13,246 nt of DNA from a virus (Duplodnaviria > Heunggongvirae > Uroviricota > Caudoviricetes). The translations under genes were made by a program, and so were the position numbers. The notes under the pieces are model-generated. The model had not been told where the DNA came from and ran no database searches. It saw only the letters and a program-made list of their open reading frames with translations. Location: IMG/VR virus record IMGVR_UViG_2541047805_000002. One strand, given 5' to 3'. Positions 1 through 13,246 of the stretch are shown one piece after another. Position 1 is the first letter of the stretch, and the number at the start of each line of letters is the position of its first letter.

Positions 1-258
1 ATGCAAACCGTTATTTTTGGTCGTTCGGGTTGCCCTTACTGTGTGCGTGCAAAAGATCTGGCTGAGAAATTGAGCAATGAACGCGATGATTTTCAGTATC
101 AGTATGTAGATATTCGTGCGGAAGGGATCACTAAAGAAGATCTACAACAAAAGGCAGGTAAACCCGTAGAAACCGTGCCGCAGATTTTTGTCGATCAGCA
201 ACATATCGGCGGCTATACCGATTTTGCTGCATGGGTGAAAGAAAATCTGGACGCCTGA
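1..258 (+). CDS. grxA: Glutaredoxin 1 (85 aa); window begins at its start codon, so the promoter is not visible
   Basis: 85-aa ORF with the CPYC active-site motif; translation is near-identical to E. coli GrxA as I recall it. ATG at position 1, TGA at 256-258. Confidence 0.93.
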   Translation: MQTVIFGRSGCPYCVRAKDLAEKLSNERDDFQYQYVDIRAEGITKEDLQQKAGKPVETVPQIFVDQQHIGGYTDFAAWVKENLDA

Positions 259-267
259 TCGTCTGAC

Positions 268-300
268 AAGCCCTCGCGTTGAGGGCTTTACTGATTTTTT
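268..300 (+). terminator. Putative rho-independent terminator downstream of grxA
   Basis: Inverted repeat AAGCCCTC / GAGGGCTT (268-275 and 281-288, 5-nt loop) followed by TACTGA and a T6 run (295-300). The U-tract is not directly adjacent to the stem, so this is tentative. It overlaps the 3' end of convergent ybjM. Confidence 0.4.
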
Positions 301-665
301 CTGTGCTGTGGTTTAAACAAACTACTGATAAATAAGAAACACAGTGCCCCCAGCGCACACCAGAACACCGCGCTTAGTAACCATGCCAGCTCTTGCCAGA
401 ATGAGCGCGTCGGTGAAAAAAACAGCCGCATAATGAGCATCGAACAGGGTGCCGCCAGCATTGCGCCAAACAGAGGTTTCAGGACTTCTCTACGCTGTGA
501 AAAGAAGCTGGCGACTGCTCCAGGAAGAATGAAAAATAGCAAGCCGATTTCAGGATGCCCGGCAGCCCGAAAAGCGCCTTTCATGTGCGTCGCCAGAAAA
601 AGGCACACCACAATGAAGAGGACAAAACAGCAGATTGCCCCCGCCCAACGTTGTTTATGTTTCAC
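288..665 (-). CDS. ybjM: Inner membrane protein YbjM (125 aa)
   Basis: 125-aa hydrophobic ORF matching E. coli YbjM by recall; GTG start at 665-663 preceded by AGGAGG at a 5-nt spacing; convergent with grxA as in K-12. Confidence 0.88.
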   Translation of the reverse strand: MKHKQRWAGAICCFVLFIVVCLFLATHMKGAFRAAGHPEIGLLFFILPGAVASFFSQRREVLKPLFGAMLAAPCSMLIMRLFFSPTRSFWQELAWLLSAVFWCALGALCFLFISSLFKPQHRKNQ

Positions 666-934
666 TCGTTCCTCCTGACACTGCGTCTATCGAACACATT
701 TTTCGCCAGTGTGGCGTTCAGTAAGATAAAGCCGCTTCGCATTCCATGCTAATATAGGCCAACGCAATTCATATAGCCGTTGATACCTAATGTGATTACA
801 CTAGTAAAATATATTGTTACTTTACTATCGTTTAGGTGCGCTGAATGAATCTGCGCCCTGAATTCTGGTAAAAAACATTATCGTAAATTACCATTTCTTT
901 CAACAGCTTACTAGTAAACAAGAAGTTAGCCTCC

Positions 935-2620
935 GTGAATATAAACGTCGCCGAATTGTTAAATGGGAATTACATTCTGTTATTATTTGTGGTCCTCGCG
1001 CTTGGGCTATGTCTCGGAAAGTTACGACTTGGTTCGATCCAACTGGGTAATTCCATTGGCGTTTTAGTCGTATCGCTGTTATTAGGCCAACAACATTTCA
1101 GCATTAACACCGATGCGCTTAATCTTGGCTTTATGCTGTTTATTTTCTGCGTCGGGGTCGAAGCCGGACCGAACTTTTTTTCCATTTTTTTTCGCGATGG
1201 GAAAAATTACCTAATGTTAGCACTGGTGATGGTTGGCAGTGCGCTGGTGATCGCCTTAGGGTTAGGTAAGCTGTTTGGCTGGGATATTGGCCTGACGGCC
1301 GGTATGTTAGCAGGCTCTATGACGTCGACACCGGTTCTGGTCGGTGCTGGCGATACACTGCGTCATTCCGGCATGGAAAGCAGGCAGCTCTCACTGGCAC
1401 TGGATAATCTGAGCCTCGGGTATGCCTTAACCTATTTAATCGGTCTGGTGAGTTTGATTGTTGGTGCGCGTTACTTGCCGAAATTGCAGCATCAGGACTT
1501 ACAGACCAGCGCCCAGCAAATCGCCCGCGAACGTGGCCTGGACACTGATGCCAACCGTAAGGTTTATTTACCGGTGATCCGCGCCTATCGCGTCGGCCCG
1601 GAACTGGTGGCCTGGACCGACGGCAAAAATCTGCGTGAACTGGGTATTTATCGACAAACCGGCTGCTACATTGAACGTATTCGACGTAACGGGATTCTGG
1701 CAAATCCAGACGGTGATGCCGTGCTACAAATGGGCGATGAAATAGCGTTGGTAGGCTATCCCGACGCCCATGCCCGACTCGATCCCAGCTTCCGTAACGG
1801 TAAAGAAGTTTTCGATCGTGACCTTCTCGACATGCGTATCGTCACTGAAGAAGTGGTCGTTAAAAACCATAACGCTGTAGGTAAACGTCTCGCACAACTG
1901 AAGTTGACCGATCACGGTTGCTTCCTTAACCGCGTCATTCGTAGCCAGATTGAGATGCCGATAGATGACAACGTCGTGCTTAACAAAGGTGACGTTTTAC
2001 AAGTCAGCGGCGATGCCCGCCGCGTAAAAACCATCGCCGATCGCATCGGCTTTATCTCGATTCACAGCCAGGTCACTGACCTGCTGGCATTCTGCGCCTT
2101 CTTTGTTATTGGGCTGATGATCGGGATGATCACCTTCCAGTTCAGCACATTCAGTTTCGGCATGGGGAACGCTGCCGGGTTGTTATTCGCCGGAATTATG
2201 CTGGGCTTTATGCGTGCTAACCACCCGACCTTCGGTTACATTCCGCAGGGTGCATTAAGCATGGTGAAAGAGTTCGGCTTGATGGTGTTTATGGCAGGCG
2301 TTGGTCTGAGCGCCGGTAGCGGTATTAATAACGGCCTGGGCGCGATTGGCGGTCAGATGTTGATTGCCGGATTGATTGTCAGTCTGGTGCCCGTGGTTAT
2401 CTGTTTCTTGTTCGGTGCTTATGTATTGCGAATGAACCGCGCGCTGTTGTTCGGCGCAATGATGGGCGCACGTACCTGCGCACCGGCAATGGAGATCATC
2501 AGTGATACAGCTCGCAGTAACATCCCGGCGCTGGGCTATGCGGGCACCTATGCAATCGCCAACGTCCTGCTGACGCTGGCAGGGACAATCATCGTCATGG
2601 TATGGCCAGGATTAGGATAA
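935..2620 (+). CDS. ybjL: Putative transporter YbjL (AAE-family permease, 561 aa)
   Basis: 561-aa ORF with GTG start at 935; hydrophobic N- and C-terminal membrane domains flank a soluble central region; matches E. coli YbjL by recall in sequence and length. Confidence 0.92.
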
Positions 2621-2732
2621 AACTGAAGTTGCCCTGAAAATGAAATTTTTTTGCACAACCGCAGAACTTTTCCGCAGGGCATCAGTCTTAATTAGTGCCA
2701 CTGCTTTTCTTTGATGTCCCCATTTTGTGGAG

Positions 2733-2776
2733 CCCATCAACCCCGCCATTTCGGTTCAAGGTTGATGGGTTTTTTG
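2733..2776 (+). terminator. Rho-independent terminator, probably terminating ybjL transcription
   Basis: Perfect 10-bp inverted repeat CCCATCAACC (2733-2742) / GGTTGATGGG (2760-2769) followed directly by TTTTTT (2770-2775). It is functional only on the + strand; the minus strand has no T-run after the stem. Confidence 0.6.
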
Positions 2777-2855
2777 TTGCCTGAAATTTAAGATGTTTAA
2801 AATCATGATGTTAGAAGCACTGTTTTTTAACGATGGCGACAAAATGGCGGCAGCG

Positions 2856-3074
2856 TCAAAGAGAGAGCGCCACCTGTCCTGATTTCATTGGATGCGGCTG
2901 AACTGGATTCGACTCTTTTGGTGTTGCAATCGAACGAACAAAAGTTTCATGGGTAACAAAAGTATGGCTGCAGTTAATGTTCTGGCACTGGTTATAACGC
3001 TCTTTGGTCAATGAAGATACCTGAAAACTGCTGCGAGTATGGGCGGCACTTCCACACAGTGGGCAAATCATCAT
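2856..3074 (-). CDS. ogr: Ogr/Delta-family zinc-finger late transcription activator (72 aa)
   Basis: Cys4 motif C-x2-C-x22-C-x4-C (CPLCGSAAH...CQNINC) and overall similarity to P2 Ogr by recall. I chose the ATG at 3074-3072 because GGGGAGA lies about 9 nt upstream; the track's GTG at 3107 would add 11 residues. Sits immediately downstream of D, as in P2. Confidence 0.85.
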   Translation of the reverse strand: MMICPLCGSAAHTRSSFQVSSLTKERYNQCQNINCSHTFVTHETFVRSIATPKESNPVQPHPMKSGQVALSL

Positions 3075-3104
3075 TTTTCGAGTTCTCCCCATTTTTGCTA
3101 AATT

Positions 3105-3140
3105 CACAACAATGATACCGTATTATTCCATTTTGCAAAC
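3105..3140 (-). promoter_or_regulatory. Candidate sigma70 promoter for ogr
   Basis: On the minus strand, TTGCAA (-35-like), a roughly 15-nt spacer, then TATCAT (-10-like), placed about 30-60 nt upstream of the ogr ATG. The spacer is short, so this is weak. Confidence 0.25.
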
Positions 3141-3164
3141 TTAAAAGTTCTCCATTGCGAAGAA

Positions 3165-4265
3165 TCATTCCATTTCGAAATCATCAATCCTCACTTCAAG
3201 CTCCAGACTGGTCGTAAAACCGTTATCCGGGCTGACGGTATGTGTCAGGGTGGTAATGGTCCATTCCGCATCATCTATCGGCTGTTTAAAACCACTGACC
3301 TTCACAGACATTTCCGTGTAGAGATCTGCCCGCCCTTCTGCCAGTTGTAGAGAAAATGACGCAACGCCGCGTTGCAGGCGTTCCCACTGCATTTTCGCCG
3401 CTCGTTCGGCGTTGCTCCGGTTGGCATAGGTGCGATTAAGTACCAGCACGTTTTCATCCGTACCCACCAGGTAATCGCCCTGCTTCGCTTCTGGCTCTTT
3501 CTTCTGCTTCTTAGTTCTGCGCTTACGCTTCACCGTGGTGCTTTCTTTCTTCGCAGGTTCGCGGGTATGCAACCAGCTGGCAATTACGCCCGTGTAGGCT
3601 CCGCGATCTGCCAGGGTAAATCGGTGACTGTCGCCGTCCTTGCGTGTGATAGTGATCACTGGCAGAGGTTTACCAGTGGCGCTTTTGCCCTGCCCCTGCC
3701 GGATGAATAACAGATTGCCATTTTTCACCGACGCGATGGCACCGTACTGTCTCGCCAGCCGCATCAGAAAACTGCCGTCACTCTCATTAGTCTGGTCTAT
3801 ATGCTCCACGGGCTTATCCGACAGGTCTTTACCCAGTGCCATCTTCAGCTTGTGCCGCGCGGCAATTTCCTGCACCACTTCCCCGACGGTGGTCTTATGC
3901 CACGATTTTTCACGGCGGGTATTCAGCGTTTCCCGAAAATCAGCACTTCGCGCCCGGATAGTCAGGCGGTCCGGTGCGCCAGTGTGTTCAATCTCGTCCA
4001 CTGTGAATGCCCCTTTCGGGAAAAGCGGCTGCCCCTTCCAGCCCAGCGCCAGCGTAATGACCGCACCACGGCGCGGCAGCACGATTTTTCCGTCAGCGTC
4101 ATCCAGCTCCAGATCAAGCTGGTCCGCTTCAAAGCCCCGGTTATCCGTCAGCGTCAAACTCATCAGGCGGTTATCCAGCACAGTGGTGATATCCCTGCCC
4201 TCAATACTGATGCTGAATGCGGGAGTTTTGTTGCCTTTGTTAAGCAGTTCAGAGCTGAAATTCAC
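3165..4265 (-). CDS. Phage late control gene D protein (tail protein gpD, 366 aa)
   Basis: Translation resembles P2 gpD-family tail proteins and the gene is in the U-D-ogr position. The only start that gives translational coupling is GTG at 4265-4263, which overlaps the U stop (GTGA). Confidence 0.85.
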   Translation of the reverse strand: MNFSSELLNKGNKTPAFSISIEGRDITTVLDNRLMSLTLTDNRGFEADQLDLELDDADGKIVLPRRGAVITLALGWKGQPLFPKGAFTVDEIEHTGAPDRLTIRARSADFRETLNTRREKSWHKTTVGEVVQEIAARHKLKMALGKDLSDKPVEHIDQTNESDGSFLMRLARQYGAIASVKNGNLLFIRQGQGKSATGKPLPVITITRKDGDSHRFTLADRGAYTGVIASWLHTREPAKKESTTVKRKRRTKKQKKEPEAKQGDYLVGTDENVLVLNRTYANRSNAERAAKMQWERLQRGVASFSLQLAEGRADLYTEMSVKVSGFKQPIDDAEWTITTLTHTVSPDNGFTTSLELEVRIDDFEME

Positions 4266-4747
4266 GACAGCAGCCCTCCCACCGTTTTACTGATATCGCT
4301 TAAGGCAGACGTTGCCGTGTCCTGCAGATTATTCAGTTGCGCACTGAGATCACCGAACATATCGGACAGGGATTCATCCACTCGTTTGAGCGACAGGGTG
4401 AACTCAATCCGGCGCGGCATACCGTCGCGGAAAAACTCCGTTTTAGTCTGATTCAGTCCCTCAATCACATACATACCGTAAATCGTGCCGCTGCCTTCAA
4501 TCAGGGGCCATGCTTTCCCCTGTTCTGCCATCTGCTCCAGTGCCAGCAACGACAGCCTGCCGCCTGTTATCTCCGGCATAAGAACACCGGAAAGCGTCAG
4601 CATGTCGTTTTCCGGTCCCAGAAACTGCGTGGACGGACGTCGGTTTACCCGACTGTTTGCCGCATGTCGCCAGCTGCGTTGATACTGCAGTTCCTGATAC
4701 GGCACGGTGCGCAGCATAAACACGTACAATCCCAGCACCATCATCAT
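4262..4747 (-). CDS. Phage tail protein U (gpU, 161 aa)
   Basis: Translation (MMMVLGLYVFMLRTVPYQELQYQRSWRH...) is similar to P2 gpU by recall; the ATG at 4747-4745 overlaps the stop of the T fragment (ATGA). Confidence 0.87.
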   Translation of the reverse strand: MMMVLGLYVFMLRTVPYQELQYQRSWRHAANSRVNRRPSTQFLGPENDMLTLSGVLMPEITGGRLSLLALEQMAEQGKAWPLIEGSGTIYGMYVIEGLNQTKTEFFRDGMPRRIEFTLSLKRVDESLSDMFGDLSAQLNNLQDTATSALSDISKTVGGLLS

Positions 4748-5685
4748 GCGTCGTATCCCCCCTGATCGCTGTAGTTACTCCTGGCTTTTGCCTTCAGCCT
4801 GCGTTCACGTTCATCAAGCTGGCGTGCCACCTCCCGAGCAATATCCTGCGCACTTTGTCCTGGCTGCGTCTGAATGATGATCTGCGTCGGTACCTCAATC
4901 CGTTGAACGAGCGGCACAGTGGCTGCGCGACTCACAATTGCTTCTCCACCTTTCGCGGGGAGTGCCAAAGGGTGCAACGGTGGAAGCTCTGCTGGCGCGG
5001 CAGCAACGCCCATCATTCCGGCAACAACGGCAGCCAGTGCAGCTGTATTTCTCCGGCTGGTCACATTTGCCGGGCCGTTAACAATTTCCGGCCCGTTTTC
5101 ACCGACGATGCCAAACTGCCCGCGCGGGATATACCCGCCGCTGTCATACATCCCCGCAAAGCCATACCCCCATGACGGAAAACCACCCGATGGCATCATC
5201 ACTTTACCGTCTGCATTCACCGTCGCAGGTTGCTGACGCGTCACGCTTTCCGGCAGTTTTGCCTTTGCGGCCTCTTTACTGACAATGCCAAGTTTCTCCA
5301 GCAACCAGGAAACGCCGGATTTCAGGGAGTCCAGCGGATGCATGACCATATTCAGCCCTTCCGCCAGTGCCTCTCCGAATCGCCGCCCCATTGCCGCTGC
5401 ACTCTGCAGTTCGGCAGAGGTCGACTTAACGGGCGTCAGCAGATCAGTAAACCAGCCCCACAGCGCCTGTACTTTGTCGCCAATCCACTGGAACACGGGC
5501 TTAAGCGGTTCGAACGCTGCACTGACGGGACCTGCCGCCGCTTTGAATCCTTCCACCACGCCACCAAGAAATGCGGTGATGGGTTGCCAGTATTTCCAGA
5601 CAACCAGCGCCACGCCCGCCAGTGCAGTAACCACAAGACCTATCGGACTGAGCAGAGCACCTAACAGACCAGATAGGAAGCACCA
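4744..5685 (-). pseudogene. Tail tape-measure protein gpT, C-terminal fragment only (about 300 of roughly 800 codons)
   Basis: The T frame is open from the stop at 5700-5698 down to 4744 and encodes a hydrophobic segment ([27 protein letters not shown]) followed by a Gly/Ala-rich tape-measure-like C-terminus. There is no N-terminal two-thirds and no native start; upstream sequence switches abruptly to terminase coding sequence. Confidence 0.8.
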
Positions 5686-6352
5686 TCGGATCGCCTTTCA
5701 GCTCCACCTCCACTTCTTTGGCGAAGTCGATGATGTACTGCTTAAAGACGTGGGCCTGTGCCTTACTGGCGGAAAGGAAAATCTGGTTACGCCCGGTTAG
5801 CAGGGCGTCAATCAGGGCTTCACGGGCAAAATAGAAGGTCGCGCCGATCTGGCGTGACTTCAGCAGGTTGCGGATGCGGTTGGTTTTTCCGGCTTCCCAC
5901 CAGTGGCGCTGGTAGTTGAACATGGAGGAATGGAAGATTTCTTCCAGCTTCTCAATCTGTTCATCGGTGAAAACGTTCTTTTCCGGCTGACGGCGCGGGC
6001 CTTTGTTGCGGTTGGCGACGTTAGGGTTTAAGTCGGCTTCGTTGCCGCCATTGTTAAACTTGCCGATCCGCGCATGGCGCTCCGACTGGCGCGCCAGCAG
6101 GTCAATCTCTTTGAAATCTTTCCCTTCTTTGTGCTCCTTCATAATGAGCTGGCAGTAGCGTGCGGCGGTGGTGAGCTGCATCTGATCCAGCGGCCCATAG
6201 TCACCCCACTTGTCGCGTTTTTTCCAGCTGTGAACGGTTGCAACTTTCTCGCCCAGCATTTCAGCAATGCGGGCTACGCGGTATCCCTGAAAGTACAGCA
6301 GCATGGCCTGCCGACGGGGATCGAGATCTGCGGGTGTCAGTGTGGTGTTCAT
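5678..6352 (-). pseudogene. Terminase large (ATPase) subunit gpP, N-terminal fragment only (about 225 of roughly 590 codons)
   Basis: ATG at 6352-6350. Residues 1-225 align with P2 gpP by recall (…[12 protein letters not shown]…HSWKKRD…[21 protein letters not shown]…GDPMVL). After about 5678 the frame runs through out-of-frame T-derived sequence to a stop at 5501 (track ORF 5501..6352). Confidence 0.83.
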
Positions 6353-6396
6353 GGCACAAACCTACAGCCTTGAATGAAGGCTTTCCCCGCCTGCGG

Positions 6397-6418
6397 TTTG
6401 TGTGGTTGTCGGTACAAA
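6397..6418. promoter_or_regulatory. Candidate Ogr/Delta activator-binding dyad of the late promoter for the O-N-M-L operon
   Basis: TTTGT-N12-ACAAA dyad with TGT at 6399-6401 and ACA at 6414-6416. Its centre is about 87 bp upstream of the O start codon, so roughly -55 to -60 if the transcript starts near the weak -10-like CATAAG at 6454-6459. P2 late promoters are known to carry a TGT-N12-ACA element at about -55. Confidence 0.5.
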
Positions 6419-6494
6419 TACCGCGCATTGTTTCACTGCCCCCATCACCGCAACCATAAGGCTCCAGTAAGTTTTTTCTAACGGAGCACGGCTC

Positions 6495-7328
6495 ATGACA
6501 GTGAAAGCAAAGCGTTTTCGCATCGGGGTGGAAGGTGCCACCACCGACGGACGCGAAATCCAGCGTGAATGGCTGGAACAGATGGCAGCCAGCTACAACC
6601 CGGCGGTGTATACCGCGCTGATTAACCTTGAGCACATCAAGTCTTATCTGCCGGACAGCACCTTTAACCGCTACGGCAAGGTGACGGCGCTGTTTGCTGA
6701 AGAAATCACGGAAGGTCCGCTGGCAGGCAAGATGGCGCTGTATGCCGACGTTGAGCCAACGGAGTCCCTGGTGGAACTGGTGAAAAAAGGCCAGAAATTA
6801 TTCACCTCTATGGAAGTCAGCCCGAAGTTCGCTGATACGGGCAAAGCCTACCTGGTCGGCCTGGCTGCCACTGATGACCCTGCCAGTCTGGGTACGGAAA
6901 TGCTGACATTCAGCGCCAGTGCAGCCCATAACCCGCTGGCAAACCGCAAGCAGAATCCTGCCAATCTCTTTACCGCTGCAGAGGAAACGGTGATCGAACT
7001 GGAAGAAATCCAGGACGACAAACCGTCCCTGTTTGCCCGCGTCACGGCGCTGTTTACCAAAAAAGAGCAGTCCGATGACGCCCGGTTCTCTGATGTGCAT
7101 AAGGCCGTGGAGCTGGTCGCCACTGAGCAGCAAAACCTGAGCGCACGCACCGAAAAATCCCTGTCTGAGCAGGAAGAACGCCTGTCTGAGCTGGAGACTG
7201 CCCTGCAGGCACAGCAAACCGCCTTTAACGAACTGGTGGACAAGCTGAGTCATGAAGACAGCCGCCAGGACTACCGCCAGCGTGCAACAGGCGGTAACGC
7301 CCCCGCTGACACTCTGACCAATTGCTGA
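6495..7328 (+). CDS. Capsid scaffolding protein gpO (277 aa)
   Basis: Clear similarity to P2 gpO by recall (RIGVEGATTDGR…INLEH…YLVGLAATDDPASLGTE…ATGG…TNC); GGAG about 10 nt upstream of the ATG; divergent from P as in P2. Confidence 0.9.
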   Translation: MTVKAKRFRIGVEGATTDGREIQREWLEQMAASYNPAVYTALINLEHIKSYLPDSTFNRYGKVTALFAEEITEGPLAGKMALYADVEPTESLVELVKKGQKLFTSMEVSPKFADTGKAYLVGLAATDDPASLGTEMLTFSASAAHNPLANRKQNPANLFTAAEETVIELEEIQDDKPSLFARVTALFTKKEQSDDARFSDVHKAVELVATEQQNLSARTEKSLSEQEERLSELETALQAQQTAFNELVDKLSHEDSRQDYRQRATGGNAPADTLTNC

Positions 7329-7344
7329 TGGAGCACAAAACCCG

Positions 7345-8403
7345 ATGAAGAAGAATACCCGCTTTGCTTTTAACGCTTACCTGCAGCAGCTGGCGCGTCT
7401 GAACGGTGTGGCAGTTGAAGAACTGTCCAGCAAGTTCACCGTGGAGCCGTCTGTACAGCAGACGCTGGAAGACCAGATCCAGCAGTCCGCCGCTTTCCTG
7501 ACGCTGATTAACGTCACGCCAGTGACTGAGCAGTCCGGTCAGCTGCTGGGGTTGGGTGTTGGCAGCACCATTGCCGGAACTACTGATACCACCGCGAAAG
7601 AGCGTGAACCTGTCGATCCGACGCTGATGGTCGATGTGGAATACAAATGCGAGCAGACCAACTTTGACACGGTGCTGACCTACGCGAAGCTGGACCTGTG
7701 GGCGAAATTTCAGGATTTCCAGGTGCGTATCCGTGACGCCATCGTGAAACGTCAGGCACTGGACCGCATCATGATCGGCTTTAACGGCGTGAAGCGTGCG
7801 AAAACCTCCAACCGTAGTGAAAACCCGCTGCTGCAGGATGTGAACAAAGGCTGGCTGCAGAAAATCCGTGAGGATGCACCGGATCACGTCATGGGCAGCA
7901 CCACCACAGGCGGTGAAACCACACCGGGCGCGGTGAAAGTCGGTAAAGGTGGCGAATATGCCAACCTGGACGCCGTGGTGATGGATGCCGTCAATGAGCT
8001 TATCGACGTGGTCTACCAGGACGATGACGATCTGGTGGTGATTTGCGGTCGTGAACTGTTGTCTGACAAGTATTTCCCACTGGTCAACAAAGAGCAGGAA
8101 AACAGTGAAAAACTCGCTGCCGATATGATCATCAGTCAGAAACGCATGGGTGGCCTGCAGGCCGTGCGTGCGCCGTTCTTCCCGCCGAATGCACTGCTGA
8201 TCACCCGTCTGGATAACTTGTCCATCTACTGGCAGGAAGACACCCGCCGCCGTTCAGTTATCGACAACCCGAAACGTGACCGGATTGAAAACTTTGAATC
8301 CGTTAATGAAGCCTATGTGGTTGAGGACTACCGCTGCGCCGCACTGGTGGAAAACATCCAGATTGGTGATTTCAGCGCCGCCGCAGCAGAAGCCGGAGCG
8401 TAA
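7345..8403 (+). CDS. Major capsid protein gpN (352 aa)
   Basis: 352-aa ORF called as P2 gpN-family major capsid protein from its size and position immediately after O in the conserved O-N-M-L order. Confidence 0.9.
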   Translation: MKKNTRFAFNAYLQQLARLNGVAVEELSSKFTVEPSVQQTLEDQIQQSAAFLTLINVTPVTEQSGQLLGLGVGSTIAGTTDTTAKEREPVDPTLMVDVEYKCEQTNFDTVLTYAKLDLWAKFQDFQVRIRDAIVKRQALDRIMIGFNGVKRAKTSNRSENPLLQDVNKGWLQKIREDAPDHVMGSTTTGGETTPGAVKVGKGGEYANLDAVVMDAVNELIDVVYQDDDDLVVICGRELLSDKYFPLVNKEQENSEKLAADMIISQKRMGGLQAVRAPFFPPNALLITRLDNLSIYWQEDTRRRSVIDNPKRDRIENFESVNEAYVVEDYRCAALVENIQIGDFSAAAAEAGA

Positions 8404-8406
8404 ACC

Positions 8407-9057
8407 ATGAGCCTGAGTCCCGCACGGCAGCATCGCCTGCGCGTTCAGGCTGAACAGGCCGCCCGTGAGGGCGGCAGTGTTCGCCACGCGTCGGGCTATG
8501 ACCTGATGCTGCTGCAGCTGGCGGAAGACCGCCGCCGTCTCAAGGGCGTTCAGTCCACGGTGAAAAAAGCGGAAATAAAGGTGGAGCTGCTGCCGAAATA
8601 TGCCGCCTGGGCGGAGGGCGTCCTGGCTGCCGGAGGCGCTCAACAGGATGACGTGCTGATGTACGTGATGCTGTGGCGCATTGATGCCGGAGATTATGCC
8701 GGGGCGCTGGAGATCGGGCGTCATGCCCTGCGTCATGGCTGGGTGATGCCTCTGGGTAACCGCAACGTGCAGACCGTGCTGGCAGAGGAAATGGCAGATG
8801 CAGCGCAGAGCGCAATGCTTGCCGCTACCGGCTTTGATGCCGATCTGTTGCTGCAGACGCTGGAGCTGACAGACGGTCTGGATATGCCGGACCAGTCACG
8901 GGCGCGTCTGCATAAAGCGATTGGCGCTGTCCTGAGTGAAAGCAATCCGGCTTCCGCCCTTAATCATCTCAACCATGCGTTACAGCTCGATCCCCGCTGT
9001 GGCGTGAAAAAAGACAAACAGCAGCTGGAGCGCAGACTGCGCAATGACAGCCGCTGA
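8407..9057 (+). CDS. Terminase small / endonuclease subunit gpM (216 aa)
   Basis: Similarity to P2 gpM by recall (…QDDVLMYVMLWRIDAGDYAGALEI…LELTDGLDMPD…); position N-M-L. Confidence 0.87.
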   Translation: MSLSPARQHRLRVQAEQAAREGGSVRHASGYDLMLLQLAEDRRRLKGVQSTVKKAEIKVELLPKYAAWAEGVLAAGGAQQDDVLMYVMLWRIDAGDYAGALEIGRHALRHGWVMPLGNRNVQTVLAEEMADAAQSAMLAATGFDADLLLQTLELTDGLDMPDQSRARLHKAIGAVLSESNPASALNHLNHALQLDPRCGVKKDKQQLERRLRNDSR

Positions 9058-9152
9058 CAGAACGTGCCCCCGCGCACGGGCGGCACGGGGTGGCGAAAGG
9101 CATAGCCACATCAAAATCCCGTCCACCGCCCTCTATTTCAGGAGAAAGCAGC

Positions 9153-9617
9153 ATGAAGTTTGTTGCGCCAGAACAGGCACCGGAACAGGCGGAAATCATC
9201 AGAAATACGCCGTTCTGGCCTGATGTGGACCTGTCGGAGTTTCGCAGCGTGATGCGCACTGACGGCACGGTGACGCAGCCGCGTTTAAAGCAGGTTGCCC
9301 TGTCGGCAATTTCGGAGGTCAACGCAGAGCTGTATGAGTTTCGCAGACGTCAGCAGATGCTGGGATATGCCTCGCTGGCAGAGGTTCCGGCGGAACAGCT
9401 GGACGGCAAAAGTGAGCGCATTCAGCACTATTTCAACGCGGTTTACTGCTGGGCACGCGCCATGCTCAACGAACGATACCAGGACTATGACGCCACGGCA
9501 TCCGGTGTGAAGCGGGGCGAAGAACTGGCAGAAGCCAGCGGTGATTTGTGGCGTGACGCCCGCTGGGCCATCAGCCGGGTACAGGATGCGCCGCACTGCA
9601 CAGTGGAGCTTATCTGA
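9153..9617 (+). CDS. Head completion/stabilization protein gpL (154 aa)
   Basis: ATG at 9153 with GGAGA 7 nt upstream, preferred over the track start at 9090. C-terminus ends …TVELI, as I recall for P2 gpL. Its stop overlaps the X start (ATGA). Confidence 0.83.
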   Translation: MKFVAPEQAPEQAEIIRNTPFWPDVDLSEFRSVMRTDGTVTQPRLKQVALSAISEVNAELYEFRRRQQMLGYASLAEVPAEQLDGKSERIQHYFNAVYCWARAMLNERYQDYDATASGVKRGEELAEASGDLWRDARWAISRVQDAPHCTVELI

Positions 9618-9820
9618 TGAAAGTGCGTGCGCATCAGTATGACACGGTGGACGCGCTTTGCTGGCGTCATTACGGGCGCACGCAGGGTGTCACGGAGCAG
9701 GTACTGAAGGCAAATCCGGGGCTTGCCGAATACGGCCCCTTTTTACCTCACGGGCTGCAGGTGGAGCTGCCGGACATTCCGACCACCACCACCGTGCAGA
9801 CCGTCCAGCTATGGGACTGA
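9617..9820 (+). CDS. Tail protein X (gpX, 67 aa)
   Basis: 67-aa ORF similar to P2 gpX by recall (…DTVDALCWRHYGRT…ANPGLAE…LPHG…VELPD…); translationally coupled to L. Confidence 0.85.
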   Translation: MKVRAHQYDTVDALCWRHYGRTQGVTEQVLKANPGLAEYGPFLPHGLQVELPDIPTTTTVQTVQLWD

Positions 9821-9823
9821 ATT

Positions 9824-10039
9824 ATGACGCTTGAGCGAATCAGCGCCTTTATCACGTATTGCATCGCCGTCGTGCTGGCCTGGCTGGGCGATTTGTCCAT
9901 CAAGGATGCCTCAACGCTGGGCGGCCTGATGATTGGTGTGCTGATGCTGGCTATCAACTGGTACTACAAACACAAAGCCTACCAGCTTCTGCGCGACGGG
10001 CAGATCTCGCGGGAGGACTATGAATCCATCAATCGTTAA
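9824..10039 (+). CDS. Putative class II holin, pinholin-like (71 aa)
   Basis: Two predicted transmembrane segments (ISAFITYCIAVVLAWLG and TLGGLMIGVLMLAINWYY) followed by a charged C-terminal tail; sits between X and the endolysin where the P2 holin Y lies; architecture resembles the phage 21 S21 pinholin. Confidence 0.6.
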   Translation: MTLERISAFITYCIAVVLAWLGDLSIKDASTLGGLMIGVLMLAINWYYKHKAYQLLRDGQISREDYESINR

Positions 10040-10373
10040 ACGCTGCCTTGTCGGGGCCGTGCTGGCTATTGCTGCCACGCTGCCGGGTTTTCAGCAGCTT
10101 CACACCTCCGTGGAGGGGCTGAAACTGATTGCCGATTACGAAGGTTGTCGTCTGCAGCCGTATCAGTGCAGCGCGGGTGTCTGGACCGACGGCATTGGTA
10201 ATACATCTGGCGTCATTCCAGGCAAAACCATTACGGAACGACAGGCAGCGGAAGGACTGATCTCCAACGTGCTGCGTGTGGAGCGGTCACTGGAAAGGTG
10301 TGTGAAGCAACAGCCACCGCAACCGGAGGCCCGGTATGACGCTTTATATCGGGATGAACAATACCAGCGGTAA
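10020..10373 (+). pseudogene. SAR-type endolysin (T4-lysozyme/P1 Lyz-like), truncated after about 100 residues
   Basis: N-terminal signal-anchor-like segment (KRCLVGAVLAIAATLPGF) followed by the lysozyme catalytic-region motif EGCRLQPYQCSAGVWTDGIGNT, which closely matches P1 Lyz by recall. The C-terminal lobe is missing; the ORF ends 37 nt into gene W. Confidence 0.75.
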
Positions 10374-10695
10374 AGCCATTACTGATATTGACCATCTGCG
10401 TCAGTCGGTGCGGGACATTCTACTGACACCGCAGGGTTGCCGCATTGCCCGTCGTGAATATGGTTCCCTGCTGTCGACACTGATAGACCAGCCACAAAAT
10501 CCGGCATTACGCCTGCAGGTCATGTCGGCAGTGTATGTGGCGCTGAGTCGCTGGGAGCCACGGCTGACGCTGGATTCCATCACCATTAAAAGCAATTTTG
10601 ACGGTTCAATGGTGGTGGGGCTGACCGGGCGGCGTAATAACGGTGTGCCTGTTTCCCTTTCCGTATCAACAGGAGCAGAGAATGGCAGTGATTGA
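10336..10695 (+). CDS. Baseplate assembly protein W (gpW, 119 aa)
   Basis: Similarity to P2 gpW along its length by recall (…YGSLL…IDQPQ…PAL…WEPR…FDG…LTG…); GGAGG 6 nt upstream of the ATG. Confidence 0.88.
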   Translation: MTLYIGMNNTSGKAITDIDHLRQSVRDILLTPQGCRIARREYGSLLSTLIDQPQNPALRLQVMSAVYVALSRWEPRLTLDSITIKSNFDGSMVVGLTGRRNNGVPVSLSVSTGAENGSD

Positions 10696-11590
10696 CCTTT
10701 CGCAGTTGCCTGCGCCGCAGATTGTCGATGTGCCGGACTTTGAGACGCTGCTTGCCGAACGCAAGGCCGAATTTGTTGTGCTTCATCCGAAAGATGAGCA
10801 GGAAGCCGTGATCCGCACGCTGGAACTGGAATCTGAACCCGTCACCAAATTGCTGCAGGAGAACGCTTACCGTGAGTTGCTTCTGCGCCAGCGCATTAAC
10901 GAAGCCGCGCAGGCTGTGATGGTGGCTTACGCGATGGGCGGCGATCTTGACCAGCTCGCTGCCAACTACAACGTGAAACGCCTGACGGTGACGCCTGCTG
11001 ATAATGACGCTGTGCCACCCGTTGCGGCTGTGATGGAAAGCGATGAAGCGTTACGCCTGCGTGTGCCTGCAGCCTTTGAAGGGCTTTCTGTTGCGGGGCC
11101 AACTGCCGCTTATGAATTTCATGCCCGAAGCGCCGACGGTCGGGTGGCGGATGCCAGTGCAACCAGTCCGGCACCTGCAGAGGTGGTACTGACTGTCCTG
11201 AGTCGTGAAGGCGACGGAACAGCAGAAAAAGACTTGCTGGATGTGGTGGAGAAAGCCCTGAACAGTGAGAACGTCCGCCCGGTGGCTGACCGTCTGACGG
11301 TTCGCAGCGCAGAAATCATCCCGTACCGTGTGGAAGCTACCATTTTTCTTTATCCGGGACCGGAAGCAGAGCCGGTAATGGCAGCGGCAAAAGTCAGCCT
11401 GCAGAGGTACATCGCCAGTCAGACGCGGCTCGGTCGGGATATTCGCCGTAGTGCTATTTTTGCCGCGCTGCATGTTGAGGGTGTTCAACGTGTGGAGCTG
11501 GCTTCACCGCTGGCTGATGTGGTCCTGAACAAAACGCAGGCGGCATCATGTACGCAGTGGAGCGTGACCAACGGGGGAACGGATGAATAG
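10682..11590 (+). CDS. Baseplate assembly protein J (gpJ, 302 aa)
   Basis: ATG at 10682 with AGGAG upstream, preferred over the track start at 10643. Called as P2 gpJ-family baseplate protein from its length and its W-J-I-H position. Confidence 0.87.
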   Translation: MAVIDLSQLPAPQIVDVPDFETLLAERKAEFVVLHPKDEQEAVIRTLELESEPVTKLLQENAYRELLLRQRINEAAQAVMVAYAMGGDLDQLAANYNVKRLTVTPADNDAVPPVAAVMESDEALRLRVPAAFEGLSVAGPTAAYEFHARSADGRVADASATSPAPAEVVLTVLSREGDGTAEKDLLDVVEKALNSENVRPVADRLTVRSAEIIPYRVEATIFLYPGPEAEPVMAAAKVSLQRYIASQTRLGRDIRRSAIFAALHVEGVQRVELASPLADVVLNKTQAASCTQWSVTNGGTDE

Positions 11591-12188
11591 TCTGCTGCCA
11601 CCGGGTTCAACGCCACTGGAGCGCCGACTGGCGCAAACCTGTAGCGGGATTTCTGATCTGCAGGTGTCACTGCGTGACTTGTGGAATCCGGCAACCTGTC
11701 CGGTCAGTTTCCTGCCTTATCTCGCCTGGGCGTTCTCTGTGGATCGCTGGGACGAGGGCTGGACAGAAAGCGTCAAACGCCAGGTAGTGAAGGATGCTTT
11801 TTATATTCATCAGCACAAAGGAACCACCAGTGCCGTACGGCGGGTGGTGGAGCCGTTCGGCTTCCTGATCCGCATTATTGAGTGGTGGCAGACCGGAGAA
11901 ACACCGGGCACGTTTCGTCTGGACATTGGTGTGCAGGACCAGGGCATCACTGAAGATACCTATCTGGAACTTGAGCGACTGATAAGCGATGCCAAACCAT
12001 GTAGCCGTCACATGATCGGCATGTCCATCAATCTGCAGACCAGCGGCCCGCATTGGGTGGGAGCCGCCAGTTATCTTGGCGAAGAAATCACGATCTATCC
12101 GTATATCAACGAAACAATTATTTCCGGCGGCACCGCGCATGAAGGCGGGGCGGTCCATGTTATTGACACAATGAGAGTGAATCCATGA
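11583..12188 (+). CDS. Baseplate/tail protein I (gpI, 201 aa)
   Basis: Assigned from its position between J and H and from 8-nt overlap with the J stop; consistent with P2 gpI-family proteins. Confidence 0.83.
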   Translation: MNSLLPPGSTPLERRLAQTCSGISDLQVSLRDLWNPATCPVSFLPYLAWAFSVDRWDEGWTESVKRQVVKDAFYIHQHKGTTSAVRRVVEPFGFLIRIIEWWQTGETPGTFRLDIGVQDQGITEDTYLELERLISDAKPCSRHMIGMSINLQTSGPHWVGAASYLGEEITIYPYINETIISGGTAHEGGAVHVIDTMRVNP

Positions 12189-13246
12189 GCACAAAATTTT
12201 ATACCCTGCTGACGGATATTGGCGCGGCGAAACTTGCCAGCGCCGCCGCGCTCGGTGTGCCGCTAAAAATTACCCATATGGCGGTGGGCGATGGCGGCGG
12301 AGCATTGCCGACGCCGGACGCAAAGCAGACTGCACTGGTAAATGAGAAACGCCGGGCTGCGCTGAATATGCTCTATATCGACCCGCAGAACAGCAGCCAG
12401 ATTATTGCTGAACAGGTGATCCCTGAAAATGAGGGTGGTTGGTGGATACGTGAAGTGGGTCTGTTTGATGAGTCCGGGGCATTGATTGCCGTAGGCAACT
12501 GCCCGGAAAGCTATAAGCCGCAACTGGCTGAAGGCAGCGGGCGCACCCAGACCGTGCGCATGGTGTTGATTACCAGCAGCACGGACAATATCACCCTGAA
12601 AATCGACCCTGCCGTCGTGCTGGCAACCCGCAAGTATGTGGATGACAAGGTACTGGAGCTGAAGGTGTTCGTGGATGATAAGATGGCAAAACATCTTGCC
12701 GCACCGGACCCGCATTCACAGTATGCACCCAAAGAAAGCCCGACATTGACCGGAACACCCAAAGCGCCAACGCCAGCGGAGGGGAATAACACCACGCAGA
12801 TTGCGACCACCGCGTTTGTTCAGGCGGCACTGATGGCCCTTATTAATGGTGCGCCAGCCACACTGGATACGCTGAAAGAAATTGCCGCTGCCATTAATAA
12901 TGACCCGAAATTCAGTACCACTATTAACAATGCGCTGGCACTGAAAGCGCCGCTGTCAAGTCCGGCACTCACCGGAACGCCAACAGCCCCCACTGCCGCA
13001 CAGTCGGTTAACAATACACAGATTGCCACTACGGCTTTTGTGAAATCGGCGATTGCGGCAATGGTGGGTTCTGCACCTGCGGCACTGGATACACTGAACG
13101 AACTGGCGGCGGCGCTGGGGAATGACCCGAACTTTGCCACGACAATGCTTAATGCACTGGCAGGTAAACAACCGCTGGACAATACGCTGACTAATTTGAG
13201 TGGAAAGGATGTAGCTGGTCTTCTCGCATACCTTGGTTTGGGAGAA
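12185..13246 (+). CDS. Tail fibre protein H (gpH), 5' partial: 354 codons, runs off the window end
   Basis: Absent from the ORF track because there is no stop in the window. ATG at 12185 overlaps the I stop (ATGA). The N-terminal region (MSTKFYTLLTDIGAAKLASAAALGVPLKITHMAVGDGGGALP…) resembles P2 gpH by recall, followed by fibre-type repeats. Confidence 0.85.
   Translation, partial: MSTKFYTLLTDIGAAKLASAAALGVPLKITHMAVGDGGGALPTPDAKQTALVNEKRRAALNMLYIDPQNSSQIIAEQVIPENEGGWWIREVGLFDESGALIAVGNCPESYKPQLAEGSGRTQTVRMVLITSSTDNITLKIDPAVVLATRKYVDDKVLELKVFVDDKMAKHLAAPDPHSQYAPKESPTLTGTPKAPTPAEGNNTTQIATTAFVQAALMALINGAPATLDTLKEIAAAINNDPKFSTTINNALALKAPLSSPALTGTPTAPTAAQSVNNTQIATTAFVKSAIAAMVGSAPAALDTLNELAAALGNDPNFATTMLNALAGKQPLDNTLTNLSGKDVAGLLAYLGLGE
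12737..13180 (+). repeat. Two tandem divergent repeats of about 222 nt (74 aa) inside tail-fibre gene H
   Basis: Protein repeat units start at H residues 185 and 259: SPTLTGTPKAPTPAEGNNTTQIATTAFVQAALMALINGAPATLDTLKEIAAAINNDPKFSTTINNALALKAPLS versus SPALTGTPTAPTAAQSVNNTQIATTAFVKSAIAAMVGSAPAALDTLNELAAALGNDPNFATTMLNALAGKQPLD. Confidence 0.7.

Follow-up and report, generated by a model that had tools for sequence, protein, structure and literature searches.

A deletion junction between endolysin gene K and baseplate gene W in a P2-like prophage of Escherichia coli HVH 164

In E. coli HVH 164, a truncated endolysin gene (K) runs directly into baseplate gene W of a P2-like (Peduoviridae) prophage that lies beside ybjL. 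From sequence comparison, we read this arrangement as the scar of a 2,608-bp deletion in the prophage and put the probability of this reading at roughly 0.93. The two points joined, codon 101 of K and a site 20 nt short of the V terminus, are non-homologous, and both are placed exactly by alignment to an intact relative. The joined state is derived and rare. Taken as a whole, the feature is an instance of the ordinary, recent, strain-private decay of a resident P2-like prophage, an already known kind of event that will not surprise a specialist.

The source element and the missing interval

The window (the whole stretch of DNA analyzed, 13,246 nucleotides in length) was assigned by an exact-protein match to scaffold KE700470.1 of assembly GCA_000458495.1, from E. 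coli HVH 164 (4-5953081). According to the list of open reading frames (ORFs), it starts with the E. coli genes grxA, ybjM, and ybjL, which are followed by P2-type phage genes. The minus strand carries ogr, D, U, a shortened T, and a shortened terminase gene P, and the plus strand carries O, N, M, L, X, a 71-aa holin, a 117-codon lysozyme ORF, W, J, I, and the start of H. Membership in the P2-like group is evident from synteny and from the homologous genes O, N, M, L, X, W, J, I, D, U, and ogr. Pfam matches in the window comprise Phage_tail_X, GPW_gp25, Baseplate_J, and Tail_P2_I, while precomputed Pfam annotation of the source scaffold includes GPO, P2 capsid, GPL, GPD, GpU, and Ogr_Delta. 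Relatives of the K/W region are found in 1,047 of 5,426 complete E. coli genomes. The ogr end of the prophage (window 2856-3107) abuts ybjL (935-2620), a site common to the intact UMNK88 prophage and many others.

Three loci served for comparison: the intact UMNK88 prophage locus (NC_017641.1; L005), a 20-kb segment of the source scaffold (L006), and a Logan contig stretch (L007). The closest intact relative is the UMNK88 prophage, which occupies the identical chromosomal site beside ybjL. When compared to L005 using blastn, the window maps onto the UMNK88 prophage in three blocks with identities of 99.75-100%:

Window 1-5675: L005 41840-36166, reversed, 99.75% identity
Window 5674-10321: L005 19001-23648, forward, 99.91% identity
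Window 10320-13246: L005 26257-29183, forward, 100% identity

The features on either side of the boundary between the second and third blocks are as follows (window coordinates):

9824-10039, plus strand: intact HP1-family holin gene in the gene Y position, 71 aa (PF16080, E = 4.3e-9; labeled 'HP1 family phage holin' in UMNK88)
10020-10321, plus strand: retained 5' part of K, codons 1-101 of 170, with an N-terminal signal-anchor (SAR-like) segment and the E41/C50/T56 motif (identity to the UMNK88 lysozyme through Q101; end of the blastn block)
10320-10321, no strand: deletion junction, a 2-nt 'CA' common to both parents with no inserted bases (three-way alignment with the left and right parents of Cartapus, CP019275, and UMNK88)
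10320-10339, plus strand: V remnant, the last 20 nt including the stop codon, overlapping the start of W as ATGA (the window from 10320 on equals L005 from 26257 on; the V coding sequence is L005 25698-26276)
10322-10373, plus strand: out-of-frame K tail of 16 codons, PEARYDALYRDEQYQR, plus a stop codon, spanning the V remnant and the beginning of W (protein alignment; sequence)
10325-10329, plus strand: GGAGG ribosome-binding site of W, native to the V-W boundary (sequence; present in 121 of 121 IMG/VR matches)
10336-10695, plus strand: intact baseplate wedge gene W, 119 aa (PF04965, E = 2.7e-13; 119/119 identity to UMNK88 W by tblastn)
10682-11590, plus strand: intact baseplate gene J, 302 aa (PF04865; gene call in L006; 100% DNA identity to UMNK88)
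11583-12188, plus strand: intact baseplate/tail gene I, 201 aa (PF09684, E = 2.5e-54)

The interval absent from the window, L005 23649-26256, is 2,608 bp long and lies at positions 933,738-936,345 of UMNK88. It takes from K the last 211 nt of the gene, corresponding to the C-terminal 69 residues of the endolysin, and further holds a lysA-position gene (encoding a 125-aa membrane protein), lysB, lysC, R, and S, followed by the intergenic region between S and V and the first 559 nt of V (579 nt in all). LysB and LysC are spanins, R and S are tail-completion genes, and V is the spike gene. In the UMNK88 annotation, the same interval reads as lysozyme, a DNZ54_00345-family protein, lysB, lysC, two tail proteins (in the R and S positions), and baseplate V. 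In P2, the region between S and V contains the late promoter from which V is transcribed, and its counterpart would fall within the deleted block. Using tblastn, the UMNK88 lysA-position protein, LysB, LysC, R, S, and V gave no match in the window or in the 20 kb of source scaffold.

A preliminary description, made from the sequence of the window alone, had placed the junction at 10310-10335, just upstream of the W ribosome-binding site, and had proposed that the P2 genes lysA, lysB, lysC, R, S, and V were lost between K and W. Both proposals agree with the alignment, in which the joint falls at 10320/10321. The comparison with intact P2-like prophages that it suggested finds UMNK88 collinear with the window on either side of the joint, with the full block present.

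The late genes of P2 are ordered Y K lysA lysB lysC R S V W J I H G. Intact relatives of the HVH 164 prophage keep this order of functions, and the missing interval corresponds gene for gene to P2 lysA through V. Unlike P2 Y and K, as these are commonly described, the lysis pair here comprises a small holin of the HP1 family and a Lyz-type signal-anchor endolysin.

The same comparison extends to isolated phages. In Cartapus, 500465-1, 4LV2017, and KP12, the left and right flanks of the joint occur at 97-98% identity and stand 2.6-2.8 kb apart. Because both flanks keep 97-100% identity to their parents right up to the joint in several phages, the junction is not a product of chance similarity. 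The window shares with the UMNK88 prophage, Cartapus (Elveevirus), Klebsiella 4LV2017, and KP12 both a DNA identity of 97-100% on the two sides of the junction and the gene order O N M L X, holin, endolysin ... W J I H. Unlike these four, each of which has the full block of 2.6-2.8 kb, the window is devoid of the block, and its prophage additionally has an inversion with breakpoints in P, FI, and T. DNA identity to Elveevirus cartapus is 97.6%, and the KP12 endolysin DNA is 97.5% identical to the left flank of the window. The KP12 endolysin has been described as Lyz-like, with a conserved SAR domain, in a P2-type lysis cassette (PMC9902359).

An 8-mer, TATGACGC, is present in both parents 9-13 nt downstream of the junction (window 10333-10343; L005 23657-23664). 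It was considered as a recombination substrate and rejected, as the joint was made elsewhere. Its presence in both parents does explain why 'YDA' recurs, by coincidence, in the native protein and in the frameshifted K tail.

Truncated endolysin and intact W

The lysozyme ORF spans positions 10020-10373 and encodes 117 aa. Alignment to the UMNK88 protein resolves it into residues 1-101 of a 170-aa endolysin followed by 16 unrelated residues. The preliminary description had called the gene a truncated SAR endolysin of the P1 Lyz type that keeps the anchor and catalytic region, and this assignment is borne out: identity to the 170-aa protein continues through Q101, intact relatives are 170-171 aa in length, and the best solved homologue of the intact endolysin is phage P1 Lyz (1XJT, E = 1.5e-26). 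The motif of GH24/T4-type lysozymes is Glu-8 aa-Asp/Cys-5 aa-Thr. Its residues, E41, C50, and T56, all fall within the 101 retained codons and can be aligned with the matching block of P1 Lyz. A full-length GH24/T4-type lysozyme domain is lacking, with PF00959 (Phage_lysozyme) matched at profile positions 2-72 of 125 only. Since T4-type lysozymes have a two-lobed architecture, the remaining 60% of the fold is probably inactive.

The N terminus, MNPSIVKRCLVGAVLAIAATLPGF, is weakly hydrophobic, and the alignment to 1XJT begins at residue 13, inside this segment, as would be expected of a SAR endolysin of the P1 Lyz type. Like P1 Lyz, the prototype SAR endolysin (PDB entries 1XJT and 1XJU), the intact protein contains the block EGCR..PY.C.AGVWTDGIGNT, with the Glu, Cys, and Thr positions, and a Cys in or beside the N-terminal hydrophobic segment. 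Unlike P1 Lyz, the window copy has none of the C-terminal part of the fold beyond residue 101, and the Cys of its SAR region is at position 9, not aligned with Cys13 of P1. The cysteines of the endolysin are Cys9, Cys43, and Cys50; membrane release or disulfide control through these residues is at most putative.

The 117-aa product is recorded as EQS86471.1, 'hypothetical protein G822_02391', an entry better annotated as a truncated endolysin pseudogene that overlaps intact W. Only two records contain the exact protein, namely, the HVH 164 assembly and a contig assembled by Logan from run SRR958310. Lysozyme fragments of ∼85-117 aa also form a cluster in the databases, from which a natural short form of the endolysin might be proposed. 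We rejected this candidate because the cluster consists mostly of contig-end partials grouped by length. One ENA member of the cluster, protein P0002 on a 1.8-kb metagenome contig, is a 117-aa truncated form of the HVH 164 endolysin that diverges after residue 96 into the unrelated sequence HCRFTFTKSRENLQTTLFPEK, which points to a separate disruption of the endolysin gene in another sample.

The deletion leaves W whole. The encoded protein is a gpW/gp25-type baseplate wedge protein by its GPW_gp25 domain, full-length ORF, and translation start, with GGAGG standing 6 nt upstream of the ATG. The preliminary description had likewise placed an intact gpW with its own GGAGG at 10336, inside the tail of the lysozyme ORF, and identity to UMNK88 gpW is 100%.

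Rarity and origin of the K/W adjacency

A short endolysin gene directly upstream of W might in principle be native, that is, a lineage could naturally have this order and encode R, S, and V elsewhere. To be counted as covering the junction, a single place in a record had to span 80% of the query (window 9600-10800). In a megablast search of 50,697 phage records, this was the case for none of the 58 matching records. Among the 25 matches listed, the left 722 bases (window 9600-10321) aligned at 97-98%, with the remainder in a separate place, such that these relatives hold both halves apart. In annotated intact relatives, including Cartapus and the circular CP019275, the endolysin is 170-171 aa long, and its gene is separated from W by, in order, lysis accessory genes, R, S, and V. 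Using a 120-nt probe over the V/W boundary (at least 80% covered), V was found to run straight into W in 1,026 of 1,027 E. coli records. Likewise, each of the 121 IMG/VR matches to the ribosome-binding region of W has the 3' end of V upstream. The exact 40-mer across the junction had no match in IMG/VR viral contigs, and the junction was found in one piece in none of the complete E. coli genomes. It thus appears private to one isolate.

These surveys argue against a native arrangement, as do the flanks, which are 99.9-100% identical to a prophage with the full block, and the absence of tblastn matches to R, S, or V in the 20-kb locus. No evidence in favor of a native arrangement was found, and the idea, to which we give a vanishingly small probability, is already refuted for practical purposes. 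The preliminary description had itself named two findings that would speak against a deletion, namely, related phages with a ∼117-aa endolysin next to W and copies of R, S, and V elsewhere in the prophage. The first was sought in the 58 phage records and the second within 20 kb of scaffold, and neither came to light. A second prophage elsewhere in HVH 164, outside the 20 kb examined, could supply R, S, and V in trans.

The rarity of the junction is also what one would expect if an assembler, or a chimeric library molecule, had made it while the prophage in the cell is intact. In line with this, the window comes from a draft scaffold that has a gap of N 2.9 kb downstream, and no complete genome shares the junction. 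Assemblers, however, err at repeats and not at unique points sharing 2 nt, and this junction joins unique, nonrepeated sequences with only 2 nt in common. The gap, moreover, sits exactly at an invertible tail-fiber segment, a place at which assemblies can be expected to break. The Logan contig of SRR958310 was assembled with different software, and the 10.5 kb of it that was compared (L007) is identical to the scaffold, including the K/W junction and a second junction described below (T/P). The reads of SRR958310 are probably from the HVH 164 isolate itself, and so the contig rules out assembler error while being compatible with an artifact at the level of the sample. Overall, we regard an artifact as highly improbable, and a deletion in the HVH 164 prophage is the reading carried forward.

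Further junctions, mechanism, and independent deletions

The K/W deletion is accompanied by two other junctions, as follows:

Window 5674-5675, no strand: second junction, at which T (C-terminal part) meets terminase gene P (N-terminal part), both on the minus strand and with a 2-nt 'TA' overlap (blastn blocks; junction alignment)
L006 16551-16552, on the source scaffold 3.3 kb past the window end: third junction, at which the first 252 codons of sheath gene FI run into P (C-terminal part), the 2 nt 'AT' being common to both sides

The T/P junction is one end of an inversion and yields a chimeric 283-codon ORF (minus-strand ORFs 4744-5634 and 5501-6352). In the inversion of the P-to-FI segment, 86 bp of P was lost, as was a further 3,724 bp comprising the 3' end of FI, FII, E, E', and the 5' part of T. 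The set of virion genes in the prophage is thus incomplete: it lacks R, S, V, the lysis genes, FII, E, and E', its P is in two pieces, and its FI and T are cut short. The simplest history would be sequential, with a reciprocal inversion between L005 19000/19001 and 36165/36166 followed by a 3.8-kb deletion over one of the joints, plus the 2.6-kb K-V deletion. A single multibreak event is equally compatible with the data. Outside these junctions, identity to an intact prophage is 99.9-100%, which makes the damage recent.

The preliminary description had held that the loss of R, S, and V together with the broken endolysin would disable tail building and efficient lysis. The gene losses stand, with the qualification that the last 20 nt of V survive, and the damage was understated, the deletion being only one of three junctions. 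The prophage is predicted to be unable to make tails or lyse. Given its expected inability to make tails, package DNA, and lyse normally, the HVH 164 prophage should not be counted as an inducible phage.

The overlaps at the three junctions (TA, CA, and AT) are exactly 2 nt each, with no filler. Microhomology-mediated illegitimate recombination leaves joints with 1-9 nt shared and no inserted DNA, and the joints found here, with flanks that are otherwise unrelated, have this form. Under random blunt joining, we calculate the probability of an overlap of at least 2 nt to be ∼0.16 per junction and ∼0.004 for all three. The uniform 2-nt overlaps lend modest support to the use of microhomology; a single junction alone would lend weak support. 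Microhomology-mediated illegitimate recombination is the most likely mechanism judging from these footprints. In such a scheme, RecA-independent illegitimate recombination at microhomology would have joined K to the end of V, either through end joining after double-strand breaks or through a replication template switch, and would be expected to depend on RecBCD/LigA or on replication. The shared 2-nt overlap suggests that one process may lie behind the deletion, the inversion, and the further deletion. Kilobase deletions at very short microhomologies without filler are described for alternative end joining in E. coli (PMC4872102, citing Chayot et al. 2010), and the HVH 164 joint resembles them in sequence footprint alone. 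With flanks of 99.9-100% identity and a uniform 2-nt footprint, the prophage offers a clean, datable case of early prophage decay.

Three other defective prophages provide a point of comparison. Two of them came from a search with the junction sequence: the N196 clone carries an independent K-W deletion (L005 23899/25825), as does 01G17CRGN001 (L005 23812/26253, with a GATA overlap at L003 9383-9386). The latter has a second deletion (T/D; L003 18029-18031). In AHB21 (L128), a T breakpoint lies near L005 36199. Like the HVH 164 prophage, these three have independent deletions of lysis and tail genes, two of them at the same chromosomal region; unlike it, they have other endpoints and junction sequences, and none has the HVH 164 junction. 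The HVH 164 deletion could serve as one data point on how E. coli inactivates P2-like prophages; alone, it raises no new biological question.

Two of the endpoints in 01G17CRGN001 nearly coincide with those in HVH 164. Its K-W deletion has a right end 4 nt from the HVH 164 right end, and the T end of its second deletion, at L005 36179, is 13 nt away from the T breakpoint of HVH 164 at 36166. A rough, post hoc estimate gives a chance of about 1e-4 for the two coincidences, and a purely random-breakpoint model does not predict the near-coincident endpoint. The AHB21 breakpoint is ∼20 nt past the one in 01G17CRGN001, although it was found by probing that very interval. From such independent deletions in an unrelated strain, with ends 4 nt and 13 nt away from two HVH 164 breakpoints, one may propose that the V/W boundary and a ∼35-nt tape-measure stretch are recurrent fragile sites in this phage type. 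Alternatively or in addition, the three joints, each with exactly 2 nt of overlap in a prophage otherwise 99.9-100% identical to its intact relative, might stem from a single event of shattering and rejoining (e.g., during abortive induction). We consider these readings unlikely. The coincidences could reflect fragile sites or could be coincidence plus ascertainment, and are best treated as a lead rather than a finding. Breaks were seen at the V/W boundary in 1 of 1,027 records and in the T interval in 17 of 1,010 (records not dereplicated). A frequent hot spot at V/W was rejected given the intact boundary in all but one of the E. coli records and in every IMG/VR match.

Serine invertases cut with a 2-bp stagger, and a 2-nt overlap at three of three junctions could accordingly be the mark of a site-directed event, in which a prophage serine DNA invertase (Cin/Hin-type) or another site-specific activity acted on secondary sites. 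The prophage does encode a resolvase-family recombinase and has cix-like sites at L005 29158-29184 and 31048-31074 (TTCTCGCATACC TT GGTTTGGGAGAA and TTCTCCCAAACC AA CGTTTAAGAAAA). One of the events is an inversion, and the 01G17CRGN001 endpoints close to the right and T endpoints would also fit. However, when scored against the half-site consensus of the native sites, the six parental breakpoints reach only 2-7 of 24, compared with a background mean of 6.0 and with 20-22 for the native sites themselves. Nor were the events conservative, in view of the 86 bp lost from P, the 3,724 bp lost from FI-T, and the 2,608 bp lost at K/W. The 01G17CRGN001 junctions overlap by 4 nt and 3 nt rather than 2, and a breakpoint within the 120 nt around V/W occurs in a single E. 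coli record, which is not the pattern of a frequent hot spot. Recombination by a serine invertase at secondary sites was rejected for want of likeness to a 12-2-12 crossover site and in view of the DNA lost, and a site-directed event of any kind is very unlikely. Illegitimate recombination at microhomologies remains the preferred mechanism for the K/W joint.

At its native sites, the invertase may still be at work. The window ends (13221-13246) in a 26-bp cix/hix-like crossover site, the first of the two given above, which belongs to the invertible tail-fiber segment. Beyond the window end, the scaffold has a gap of 1,930 N that corresponds to the 1,863-bp invertible segment of UMNK88. That the window stops exactly at a crossover site, with a gap matching the invertible segment behind it, suggests that the culture used for sequencing contained both tail-fiber orientations and that the invertase has stayed active.
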